DNA of 64,000 bases from Mytilus edulis (GCF_963676685.1 NC_092354.1:15314001-15378000); one strand, 5' to 3'. Shown: positions 22,601-27,177, counted from the first letter of the stretch. Notes: generated by a model from the sequence alone, not told the origin. Numbers and translations: made by a program.

Positions 22601-24472
22601 TCCAGAGGTGCGCCGGCTCAGGTGTTAATCTGAACCTGGAACTGGATGGCCTACACGGCTCCGATGTCTCAGCTGATGTCATTGCTGTTCTTCTGTAACT
22701 GAATGCTGTTCTGTATATCTATATCTGTCCATTATCTACACAATAACTGTTCATTGTTCTATCACTTTGCACTTTTCCACACTTCGTCTCTTTCCCTCCA
22801 AATCCACTGTGATACCACCTCTGCTTCTCTACACACTTCTGTAATCAGTTTCTTCCTCTCTGCTCCTACCACTCCCAAGGTCCTAAGTGCCCGCCACATT
22901 GACTGTCCTGCAAAGCCCCTGCATCCGACTTCTATTGCCATACACCACGTCCTCCCTCCCCGCTGTTTGCAATCCTCTACTAGCTGCTGGTATTTTGCCA
23001 CCTTTCTTTCATAAGCTACCTCTATTCTGTCTTCCCATGGGACTGTTAGTTCCAGCAATACCGCCTGCCTAGTTCCCTGTGACCAAATGACTATATCTTG
23101 TCTTAGCGATGTTGCTGCTATTTCTGCTGGGAAACTCATGCGCTGATGTATGTCTGCTGTCATCTGCCAGTCTGATGCTGTTCCAAGTATCCCTAAACCT
23201 TATGCCTGGTTGTCTTTCTTTTCTCCAGCCCTCACAAAATTTACAAACGTGATGTTCTTCTGCATCTTTCTCTTCTTTCTCCTGGTGGTATCCAACTTTG
23301 CTGCTATTGTTTTCAATACACTGTCATGCCTCCATGTATATCTTCCATCTTTCAGTGCGACTGGACATGCTGACAACACATGCTGTAGAGATGCTGGTTT
23401 GTCTTTGCATAAGGTGCATGTTGGTTCCTCTATCAACCCCCAGGTATAGAGGTTTGATGGGCTTGGTAAAACATCATACACTGATCTTAGGAGAAAACTC
23501 AATCTGTATCCCTCCATACTCAAAATCTCGCTCCAGGTCAAAGTCCTGCTTCTAGCTCCTTGCCAATTCAACCAACTACCCTGCTGTTTCATTCCTACTG
23601 CCTTAACATTCCTACTCTTCTTCTATCTATCGTATTTCCTGTTGCACCAGTTCCCTCCGTCCCTTCTCATTTGCTGTATCTCACCTTGGTTTTGTTGTCA
23701 TACCAAATCCCTGTCTACCAACTGCTGTTACACCAACGATGACACTGTGCTTTAGTCTGGTCTCAGCTTCCTTAACTGCTTCCTCTGCTTTCCATTTTCT
23801 TCCTGTCCTGATCTTTACTTTGGCTCCTCTCACTTTAGCATCTTTGCTGTCTCTCAACGTCATAACCTGTCTTGTCTTTGTAACTTTATACTCTTCTGTC
23901 AATGCCTTCATTGGTAATTGTAGCTTTGTTCCTGTGCTGTACAATCCAATGCTGCTGAAACTTCTTGGCACACCCAACCATCTTCTTAGGCATGCACTGA
24001 TCTTTCTCTCTAAGGCCTCCACTTTGGACAATGGGAACTAGTAAACTAGTAATGGCCACAGTATTCTTGGTAAGACCCCATGTTGATATATCCAGGCCTT
24101 ATATCTTCCTGGGAGCCCACTTTTGTCTATCTTCGTCAGCCATTCTACCAATTGCACTTGAACTTCATCATGTTTACCATATCTGCTAGTGTTGCATCAA
24201 ACTTTTTACCTAGGCATTTCACTGGTTTCTCTCCAACTGTTGGTATCTTTTCACCTGCTAACTCAAATGTCTCATCTTGCACTTTGCCTTTCCTCACTAT
24301 CAAACTTCTAGATTTACTTGGTTTGAACTTCATTCTGGCCCACTTAATCATCCTTTCCAATTCCTCTAAAGTCCATCTTCCCTCTATGACTGTTTTTGCT
24401 GTCACTGTTATATCATCCATAAAAGCTCTTACTGGTGGTTGCCTGACCCCTGATGACAATAATGGTCCTCTA

Positions 24473-24792
24473 ATAAAATTAACGGTACTAATTTTCTTGC
24501 ACCAGATGCGCATTTCGACAATACATGTCTCTTCAGTGATGCTCGTGGCCAAAATATTTGAAATCCAAAGCTTATATAAAAGATGAAGAGCTATAATCCA
24601 AAAGGTCCAAAAAGTATAGCCAAATCCGTGAAAGGAATCAGAGCTTTGCATGAGGGAGATACATTCCTTAATTTATAATAATTTCTATCATTTTGTAACA
24701 GTAAATTTTAATAACACAAAAATATCCGTATTTTCATGCCAGTTCCGAAGTACTGGCTACTGTGGTGGTGATACCCTCTAGGACTAACTGGA
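24473..24792 (-). mobile_element. Retrozyme-like non-autonomous retroelement inserted in the HERO RT domain
   Basis: Flanked by a 5-bp duplication CTCTA (24468-24472, 24793-24797); removing it restores VEKPSRGPLLSSGVRQPPVRAFMDD. Carries a hammerhead near its 3' end. Confidence 0.9.
24499..24542 (-). ncRNA. Type I hammerhead ribozyme, intact core
   Basis: Minus strand: gcauca CUGAAGA gaca-uguau-uguc GAAA ugcgca UC uggugc; stem I 6 bp, stem II 4 bp, palindromic stem III, AUC triplet. Confidence 0.9.
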
Positions 24793-27177
24793 CTCTACTT
24801 GGTTTTTCTACTGATTTTACAATTAAGTTCATTGCTGCTGCAAACAGGACTACTGATACTGTACACCCCGTTAGTATACCAACTTCAAGTCTCTGCCAAG
24901 CTGTGGTGAAGTCTCCAGCTGTGAACCTCATTTCAATCTTGTCAAAATACTCTCGCAGCATAGTTCTGATAGTTGGTGGAACATGATACCTCTCCAATGT
25001 CAGGTTTACTAATTTGTGAGGTATGGACCCATAAGCATTAGCCAGATCTAGCCAAAACACTGCTAGGTCACTTTTCTTCTCCTTTGCTTCTCTTAAAATC
25101 TGTGTAATAACGCTGGTGTGTTCGATGCAACCAGATACTTCAGGCATGCCTCCTTTCTGGACTGCGATGTCTATATATTCGTTGCCAAGCAGGTACCTCG
25201 TCGTTCTCCTTGCTAAAACTGCCAGGAATATCTTCCCCTCAATGTTCAATAGGGAGATGGTTCTAAACTGTTCAACTTTCCTGGAGTTCTCTTCTTTTGG
25301 TATAAAACATCCTTCTGCCTTGTATCATGACTCTGTCATCTTTCTCCTTCTCCAAATTACTTTTAATAGCTTCCACAACCTTCTGATCAGTCTGGGACAG
25401 TTCTTATATACCCTATATGAAATACCATTTGGTCCTGGAGCTGACCCTGCTCTTGCCTTTCTCACTACGTCCTGCACTTCTTGGAACTTCAGGTCTGACT
25501 CATCAAACTGTTCTTTTGACTCCTCTGGTGTTAACAATTTCTCACATTCTTCCAGGTCTTCTCCTCGTCTCTCATCCCTGTGGGTCTTACTGAGATGTTC
25601 TTCCACTTCTTCCCTCGAGTTTTCCAGTTTACCAGATCCTCTCGCTCCAAATAATCGCTTCATATACTGAAATGGGTTTGCTGTAAATGTTGCTCTCTCC
25701 TTTGCCTTTTTCTTTCTATCTCTTCTATGAGTTTCTGCTCTTGTAAGTGTCTTAAGTTTCTCCCTAGTTTCCTTTCTTAACTGCTGTAATGGTAACCTTT
25801 CATTCTCATTGGCGACTTTGTACCTCTTCTTTACCCTTCTCAAGTCTCCTCTCAATTCCTTGATCTTCTTCTGTCTCCGGTTACTATGGCCTTGTTTTGT
25901 TGGTTGTTTCCCTTGTGGTACCACTCCAAATCTGTCTTTTCCTACGCTGTAAATAATGGACGTCATTGCTGTTATCTTTCTGTCTACACTGCCTGCTAAT
26001 GTTGCCTCTAAGATGTTTTCCAAATCTTCGTCAAGAGCTTTTCAAGCTGCTTTGTCTGCATTCGTTGGCCATTTGATCTTCTCTTTGCGTGGCTCATTCT
26101 CTTCTCTACGGGTTGTTGGTTCTATCCTGTCTTCTCTACGGACTGTTGTATCTATCCCGTCTTCTCTGTGGACTGTTGGTTCTATCCTCTCTATCTCTTT
26201 TGCCTCGTCAAGTTGTTCTACCTCTGTAGGCTGTTCCTCGTGCTCATCCTCACCCTGGGTCACAGGGAGGCTATCATCACTGTGGTTTGCTTCGTGGATG
26301 GTCTCCTCCTCCGTCTGACCAGATCTCTCTGTGCGTTGATTGCCAGAATGGGGTTGCACACATTTCATTCTGCTTTGATGGATCTTCAAACCTCTAGAAT
26401 TCTTACAGACTTTACCACAAAAACATTTACATCCGTTGTTCTGGTTCGTTGTCCTTGTCCTTGTCGGTTCCATAGTCGTTTCCTGATCCTGTCCTATGGG
26501 CTGTTCATCCTCCCTGAGAACCTCTTGTTCTAATCGGTATCACTAATTTTAATGCTTTTTTAATTTTTTTATTTTTATGTATATTATTTTTTTAACTTCT
26601 CTGTAACCTTTGCATGGTTTTATGAGAATAAACTATCTATCTTAAAGGTAGAAGTCATAGTCATATAGACCCAATGATGTAATAGCATAAAAAATGAGCC
26701 AAATATTTGAAGTTGTCTTTCAAACGTAACCATTGGCAACAAGACACTGCTTTAGATAAAGATTCAGTTGTACATAATTTCAATGATAATTCCATGAACG
26801 CTTTGTACCAGGGACTTTCCGAGAGGATATCAGAAAGGCAGATATTTATTGAGGAATCGTATGCTGCACAATCTTGATCATGTCGCATATTTACTACCAA
26901 AGCATAAGCTTGCTGACAGCTTTGTCTAAGATTTATTTTAAGGATGTACCTACGCAAGGGTTAGGCATTTGTGTCCGATGTTTGACCTTTTGGGTTTTCC
27001 CCTTACGAAACTGGGTACAAAAATGTGCACCACAACATTTTTTTCTTTTCATATAAGATTCAATAGCTCACGAAAGGTCATTTGCCAAAGTTTTTGCAAT
27101 TTATAAATTTCTTTTCTTTCGACTTAAATTCCAAATGATACCAATGCAAATATCTTGGCTTTATTATTCTGTTTTGA

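Follow-up and report, generated by a model that had tools for sequence, protein, structure and literature searches.

A retrozyme, a repeat carrying a hammerhead ribozyme, is inserted in a retrotransposon that lacks long terminal repeats (a non-LTR retrotransposon) in a stretch of 64,000 nucleotides (nt) from the mussel Mytilus edulis (GCF_963676685.1 NC_092354.1:15314001-15378000; this whole stretch is called the window below). As an insertion the locus is unremarkable, the element being of a known kind, and by itself it is minor; its value is that the empty site gives a reference which fixes the junction. At the level of families, sequence comparison gives good support for a link between the mussel retrozymes and Naiad, a hammerhead-less clade of Penelope-like elements (PLEs), through a shared predicted RNA structure and a common start register. 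We consider it probable that a Naiad reverse transcriptase (RT) copies the retrozyme by an internal, structure-directed initiation on uncut or circular RNA.

The question which enzyme spreads animal retrozymes has hitherto been discussed chiefly on the basis of hammerheads in common. The partner that appears likely here belongs to a clade that has none, and what points to it is a folded RNA element present in both, together with a start position given at the level of single bases. The link names a protein, Naiad C, which is present in many intact copies, as well as a ~65-nt RNA and the base expected to be templated first. If it is true, the structure would be the first recognition signal for the Naiad RTs, which are relatives of telomerase RT.

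Retrozyme families and their fixed 3' end

A search with the insert gave 132 matches at 92-100%, many of them 350 bp apart (40 of 963 candidates were scored). In this family, called family 1, the unit measured from cut to cut is 350 nt, arrays reach 26 units, and copies were found on 13 large contigs. Units show a mean of 3.6 differences within arrays vs 6.5 between arrays, and 4 of 18 arrays have identical units, a pattern which does not tell a circular from a multimeric template. The RNA depth of the repeat is in the hundreds in all three RNA runs, with reads which are not assignable to the insert copy, and reads across the unit junction fit circles and tandem transcripts equally. Family 2 has a 354-nt unit and was seeded from the fragment listed last in Table 1; an internal motif with 5,187 exact copies was used to sample families 2 and 3. 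The hammerhead core, tandem units in the range of 150-450 bp, dispersed copies with target duplications and abundant RNA are all those of a non-LTR retrozyme, and the insert is a truncated copy of this 350-nt repeat. Its assignment to the mussel type in the preliminary description of the window is upheld by the 350-nt tandem unit, the type I hammerhead and the abundant RNA, which match the published mussel retrozymes.

The 3' end of the family-1 insertions is fixed. Counting from the cut site, 54 of 56 independent insertions end at +33, with 0-3 further matching bases; 37 of the 56 were found by similarity to the insert (the insert included) and 19 came from the first 30 exact hammerheads, on one contig. 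The latter sample was not selected by end, and 18 of its 19 members have the fixed end. The exceptions are L045, where our script picked an older neighbouring repeat and the family-1 block ends at +34, and L265, which is interrupted by another insertion. Two duplicates (L018 and L020) and an array running off its locus (L025) were dropped from the tally. The 5' ends are scattered, and no clustering of them at the stem-loop described below was seen in the 19-copy sample. In family 2 the end is found at ~+41, and by our own reading 23 of 28 family-2 and family-3 insertions in the internal-motif sample end at the homologous point. Since the distance is 33 nt in one family and ~41 nt in the other while the downstream element is the same, the end follows the downstream sequence and not the ribozyme; an end set by the distance from the cut site was rejected on these grounds.

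The inserted unit had been described as permuted relative to the cleaved monomer, as expected from a circular or multimeric template. It does span the cut site, so the template was uncut or circular. Comparison with the family unit places its 3' end at the fixed end of the whole family, and the permutation is therefore neither specific to this copy nor a proof of a circle.

A stem-loop shared with Naiad elements

The element directly after the family-1 end is predicted to fold as a bulged stem-loop followed by a UUCG hairpin. Families 1 and 2 are 84-92% identical within it and 56-76% elsewhere. A search for GIY-YIG domains, with 20 fetched loci, gave one open reading frame (ORF) with the element at its 5' end; it codes for 1,053 amino acids (aa) with an N-terminal GIY-YIG and the motifs CxC and DKA, and is called Naiad A. 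Its start matches by eye those of Naiad_Mcor and Naiad_Mgal in the supplement of Craig et al. 2021 (PMC8557442; published works are cited here from their accessible parts), and the Naiad_Mgal consensus in that supplement begins exactly at the boundary, the point which corresponds to the fixed end. With the nuclease domain of Naiad A two more Naiad families were found, B and C, which are 56-57% identical to A; Naiad C has open frames of at least 947 aa in 32 of 40 rows. All three have GIY-YIG before the RT as well as the DKA and CxC motifs; in five PLE proteins used as controls the motif is DKG and the nuclease is C-terminal. A simple core-plus-helix-II pattern found no hammerhead in any of the six Naiad units scanned.

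In Naiad A, B and C the element stands just before the ATG, and in C it is nearly identical to that of the retrozyme. The start context GCATGAA is common to Naiad B, Naiad C and the retrozyme, where it comes after the extra hairpin. The boundary lies 11 nt before the equivalent of GTCGATG in retrozyme family 1 and in all three Naiads, and the Naiad 3' ends are at most 2 nt from it in 13 of 15 scorable copies of A (20 loci), 8 of 9 of B (10 loci) and 8 of 8 of C (9 loci). The method used for these ends is blind to copies ending earlier; none was seen running into the element. In 4 of 4 runs, RNA reads depart from Naiad C at the four positions where its insertions end. A Penelope-like RT as the mover, which had been named for mussel retrozymes in general, is likely, as the stem-loop and the end register are common to the retrozyme and three Naiad families.

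A covariance model was built from 13 retrozyme-only sequences and run on 35 sources, with E-values that are to be taken as rough. It found Naiad C at E ~1e-22 and Naiad B at 1e-13; the match to Naiad A was partial and weak (0.02-0.5), and Naiad A carries an extra hairpin within the shared element. There was no leader match among 19 loci of PLEs with a C-terminal endonuclease, nor at any HERO locus, and three matches at L156 coincide with retrozyme-like copies. In the outer two helices, all 109 of 109 cells across 10 sequences can pair, and 7 of the 11 pairs show double changes; none of 500 shuffles was as good, and slid controls reached 28-57%. Single sequences fold in the same manner (z -2.0 to -4.0). 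Of the 54 Naiad consensuses in the PMC8557442 supplement, 11 contain the core 11-mer, in each case at their beginning or close to it; these Naiads are from seven bivalves, three hemichordates and one fish, and a twelfth occurrence is split by a line break.

Some observations on these elements should be mentioned. The extra hairpin of Naiad A measures ~22 nt (L142:4458-4481, minus strand), and at the equivalent place an insertion is found in Naiad-1_Skow of the Craig supplement. The terminal repeat of Naiad C (L281:8244-8700) has an RNA depth of hundreds on both strands vs under ~20 in the ORF, which is as expected because there are many dispersed 3' fragments. A family-1 array (L265-L268, G000:C1 ~8.875-8.877 Mb) is broken by reversed sequence of a Naiad B 3' end, as judged by eye. 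Two PLE families with a C-terminal endonuclease (L143-L145, L147, L149) possess a second frame of their own, which lies upstream and overlaps with that of the RT, and this suggests a frameshifted ORF1. A further repeat, found in three copies (L148:6813, minus; L151:2099, plus; L158:1129, minus), has a hammerhead core near-identical to that of family 1 and unrelated flanks. Two of the three seem to begin ~35 nt upstream of the core. This repeat suggests that hammerhead modules are swapped, and perhaps that there is another partner.

The insert in the HERO copy

Positions of the insert and its parts are collected in Table 1. The host element, which has the Pfam domains RT and zf-RVT and a C-terminal piece without any Pfam match, is called HERO here; this is the label of the preliminary description and is provisional.

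Table 1. Features in the window, numbered from its first nucleotide
Feature	Position	Strand	Remarks
Host non-LTR retrotransposon	22500..26535 (ends approximate)	-	RT and zinc-finger domains
Retrozyme insert	24473..24792	-	320 bp; 0.9 of the 350-nt unit, from about monomer +68 via the cut site to +32
Target duplication copy, 3' junction	24468..24472	-	TAGAG on the minus strand; first two bases also equal retrozyme +33/+34
Target duplication copy, 5' junction	24793..24797	-	
Segment 3' of the cut site	24473..24504	-	32 nt; stops at the family-wide fixed end (presumed RT start)
Type I hammerhead	24499..24542	-	helix I 6 bp, helix II 4 bp, helix III 2 bp with GCGC loop; helices by inspection
UUCG-tetraloop hairpin, then ATG	24735..24757	-	ATG in GCATGAA context, as in Naiad B and C start codons
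Naiad-shared stem-loop, 3' strand only	24756..24787	-	5' strand missing in the insert
Rearranged 5' junction	24776..24792	-	5 non-family bases and two private changes forming a third TAGAG
Family-2 retrozyme 3' fragment	44861-45029	+	own hammerhead; ends at the family-2 fixed end

The insert is bracketed by CTCTA at 24468-24472 and 24793-24797, a duplication which cannot be extended to 6 bp. Sixteen HERO paralogs of 96-98% identity were fetched, and none is interrupted at this site; 14 have a single TAGAG there and 2 a one-base variant, and in a search with the HERO stretch the paralogs match both flanks of the insert with a 5-base overlap. These 16 empty sites rule out that the segment is native to HERO, and bear out the original view that it is a retrozyme insertion. 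The insert diverges by ~1% from the family unit, the HERO copy by 1.5-4% from its paralogs. The size and the 5-bp duplication were also correctly described, although the duplication is not clean and the coding target does not give the exact ends that had been expected of it. At the 3' end there is an ambiguity of 2 nt, as the TA of the duplicated bases also matches retrozyme +33/+34. At the 5' end 5 nt agree with no family base in register, and adjacent private changes at 24779-24780 create the third TAGAG at 24776-24780. This variant is found in 0 of 209 unit matches (from fetched, partly overlapping loci), and 87-88 of 88 RNA reads in one direction (run X21) have the family bases at 24779-24780. 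The loop of the stem-loop shared with Naiad is where this junction lies. The third TAGAG and the filler suggest repeated priming during second-strand joining; an inversion of 4-6 nt could also be the source of the filler.

The hammerhead is on the minus strand, as is HERO, with the core CUGAAGA from 24536, GAAA and AUC, and the predicted cut is after 24505 (24505/24504), 32 nt from the insert end. It was called intact in the preliminary description, with the 3' end ~32 nt past the cleavage site; by inspection the core and all three helices are present, and the distance is 32-34 nt. A scan of the window with Rfam gave no match at the gathering threshold, so the call rests on the inspection of core and helices and on the 3,048 genome copies of the exact 38-nt hammerhead (reversed control 0). 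The minimum-energy fold of the hammerhead alone has z 0.5 and carries no information. RNA read ends do not pile up at 24505, which says nothing on cleavage as the libraries were fragmented. A cloned monomer of a mussel retrozyme cleaved at ~0.1/min (PMC7229834), and with this precedent a dimer is probably not needed for cleavage. Two other traces of hammerheads were noted in the window, a short family-1 fragment with few changes at ~40845-40900 (minus strand) and a degenerate hammerhead-like stretch at 27433-27489 which is 72% complementary to the hammerhead of the insert.

The FMDD of HERO starts 16 codons past the target codon, as had been stated. The claim that the insert breaks the ORF and could cut HERO transcripts is of little consequence. 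The frame of the host copy is already closed upstream of the insert by two TGA stops, near 26040 and 25323, and is shifted downstream of it, near 24165; these changes are private, being absent from every paralog aligned there (15, 14 and 16 of 16 at the three sites). The RNA depth per strand is 0-2.5 in the HERO flanks vs up to ~600 in the repeat. Because of the private stops and the frameshift and the barely transcribed flanks, the effect of the insert on HERO is trivial; the copy is dead with or without it, and silencing of HERO by the ribozyme was rejected as a meaningful effect. The sense orientation is as described, and it has the significance of a coin toss. The insert is itself a dead end. 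It carries one hammerhead only and is therefore unable to release a circle, and as it has only the 3' strand of the stem-loop it lacks the full signal. The retrozyme-built covariance model found no match to the element anywhere in the window. Apart from these elements, the window contains a ~1.1 kb repeat in two copies of 87-94% identity (18317-19428 and 43395-44490).

How a Naiad RT could copy the retrozyme, and the alternatives

Information on the start of copying comes from the flanks of the family-1 insertions. The base at +34 is A, as in the RNA, in 41 of 54 flanks vs a background of 34%. Duplications of at least 5, 6 and 7 bp are found in 17, 8 and 7 of the 54, vs null means of 5.6, 1.4 and 0.3 and a null maximum of 13 for at least 5 bp; tabulated over many copies, short duplications thus exceed chance. 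Of those 17, 11 begin two bases inside the apparent end. The bias at +34 and the duplications suggest a nick in AT-rich DNA, with the nicked end pairing to UUA in the RNA. In the empty site at the insert locus the target TAGAG comes directly after +32, with TA matching +33/+34. The simplest reading is a 2-base primer match with +32 as the first copied base; formally, copying from +34 with a 3-bp duplication would account for it just as well.

The model which we propose starts with the binding of a Naiad protein to the bulged stem-loop of ~65 nt on retrozyme RNA that is uncut or circular. The protein would nick AT-rich DNA, and 1-3 bases of the nicked end would pair with UUA 4-5 nt before the stem. 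The RT would then copy backwards through the hammerhead, on a circular or multimeric template for up to 26 units. At the insert locus the pairing would be 2 bases at +33/+34, the copying would begin opposite +32 and, ~315 nt further on, come to an end at the loop of this stem-loop, and the untidy 5' junction would have been formed there, where copying stopped. The retrozyme itself likely originated when a Naiad leader, with stem-loop and start-codon context, was joined to a hammerhead. An extended version hypothesizes that the stem-loop is the recognition and start signal of Naiad RTs from bivalves to hemichordates and a fish, and that the mussel retrozymes are viroid-like circles which stole this signal from a host that has no ribozyme; towards this we lean only slightly. 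If it is true, any small circle with the stem-loop would serve as template for many rounds of copying into the genome, begun at one fixed base.

Several points weigh against the model. The binding, the nicking and the start site attributed to Naiad are all deduced from the ends of insertions, and 37 of the insertions were selected by similarity to the insert. No duplication of at least 5 bp is found in 37 of 54 insertions. In the Poseidon element discussed below, start site and cut DNA share no homology; the present model postulates a match of 1-3 bases. The structure was derived from the same sequences on which it was tested, and relatedness inflates controls of the shuffle type. The non-Naiad PLE controls amount to only 19 loci, some of them 5'-truncated. 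Naiad loci L278 and L288 and the fragment L290 gave no match to the model, likely because of 5' truncation. Finally, the further hammerhead repeat has in its three copies no Naiad element within 330 nt downstream, so the Naiad link does not cover all hammerhead repeats here.

The boundary might instead be an RNA end, the stem-loop directing cleavage or termination just upstream and the free 3' end serving for an ordinary priming of the RT. The position of the element is indeed precisely that of the unit boundary, with a U-rich run before it, and in the Naiad A, B and C units, which are without hammerhead, the stem-loop could be a substitute for it (cf. PMC8557442). This is at variance with the arrays, which hold the element in every one of up to 26 units, with the reads that cross the boundary (45+2, 26+12 and 6+1 at the main joint in three runs), and with the mostly circular RNA published for mussel retrozymes (PMC7229834). 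There is also no pile-up of molecule ends at the boundary, although fragmented libraries make this a weak argument. We regard an RNA end as unlikely. Slightly less likely still is that the stem-loop reflects ancestry only, i.e. that the retrozyme came from a Naiad leader and is now copied by another PLE clade or by a long interspersed nuclear element (LINE). At least five PLE proteins with a C-terminal endonuclease and long open frames are present, and Xenopus retrozymes resemble the pseudo-long terminal repeats (pLTRs) of PLEs while Naiad was not detected in the vertebrates sampled, according to the accessible part of a recent preprint (bioRxiv 10.64898/2026.07.22.740005). Against mere ancestry the end register varies by no more than 1-2 nt, no other part of the unit is as well conserved as the element, whose pairing is kept, and the other PLE loci are without it.

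An amplification at the DNA level, of the rolling-circle or satellite kind (Helitron-like) and free of RT, would also give one fixed and one ragged end, and arrays. The fixed end, the tandem arrays and the insertion beside TT are like those of such elements, and most copies lack a long duplication. We find it very improbable, in view of the duplications of at least 7 bp (7 vs a null of 0.3), the duplication seen against the empty site at the insert locus, a boundary homologous to that of an RT-encoding element, and the abundance of the repeat as RNA. Copying by a Naiad RT remains the reading we prefer.

Comparison with known systems

That PLEs may move retrozymes is in print as a general proposal (PMC7229834; PMC7761336). 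A link between retrozymes and Naiad was not found in the accessible literature, where only PMC8557442 and the preprint bioRxiv 10.64898/2026.07.22.740005 name both; subscription journals, Repbase entries and supplements might hold one. The Naiads described here are like those of Craig et al. 2021 (PMC8557442) in the N-terminal GIY-YIG, the CxC and DKA motifs, the lack of a hammerhead and the partial tandems. That paper names retrozymes once, as possibly exploiting PLEs generally, and its main text, as far as accessible, has no mention of a stem-loop, a hairpin or initiation. Li, Clavereau and Pollet (bioRxiv 10.64898/2026.07.22.740005) found Xenopus retrozymes homologous to PLE termini and proposed a non-autonomous partnership. 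Their homology concerns Xenopus only, and the accessible part has no molluscs and is without an analysis of insertion ends or structure; Naiad was found only in a coral and was not linked to retrozymes, and the authors themselves place non-vertebrates outside their study.

Internal initiation has a precedent in Poseidon, a PLE found in Anolis (Frangieh et al. 2024, PMC11167929), where an internal start of the RT on uncut RNA and cutting at ATT sites were shown. The start is downstream of the hammerhead, RNA 3' of the start is needed, cleavage by the ribozyme is dispensable, and genomic ends are at the start sites. Poseidon differs in belonging to another clade, in being autonomous, in having two start sites in an AC-rich stem-loop and in having no homology between primer and template; the work as accessible used no retrozyme.

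The closest system is that of Mytilus galloprovincialis (Cervera and de la Pena 2020, PMC7229834), with ~5,000 hammerheads in repeats of 350-390 bp, RNA that is mostly circular, and PLEs proposed as movers; self-cleavage and circular RNA have been published for a repeat of this species. The M. edulis retrozymes have the same type I hammerhead, tandem units of ~350 nt, thousands of copies, two related ribozyme families and abundant RNA, a likeness at the level of the published description. The duplications of more than 4 bp described in that account are at variance with those found here, which are short and often undetectable. A fixed 3' end, a named partner and a shared structure, as described here, are absent from that account as far as accessible.

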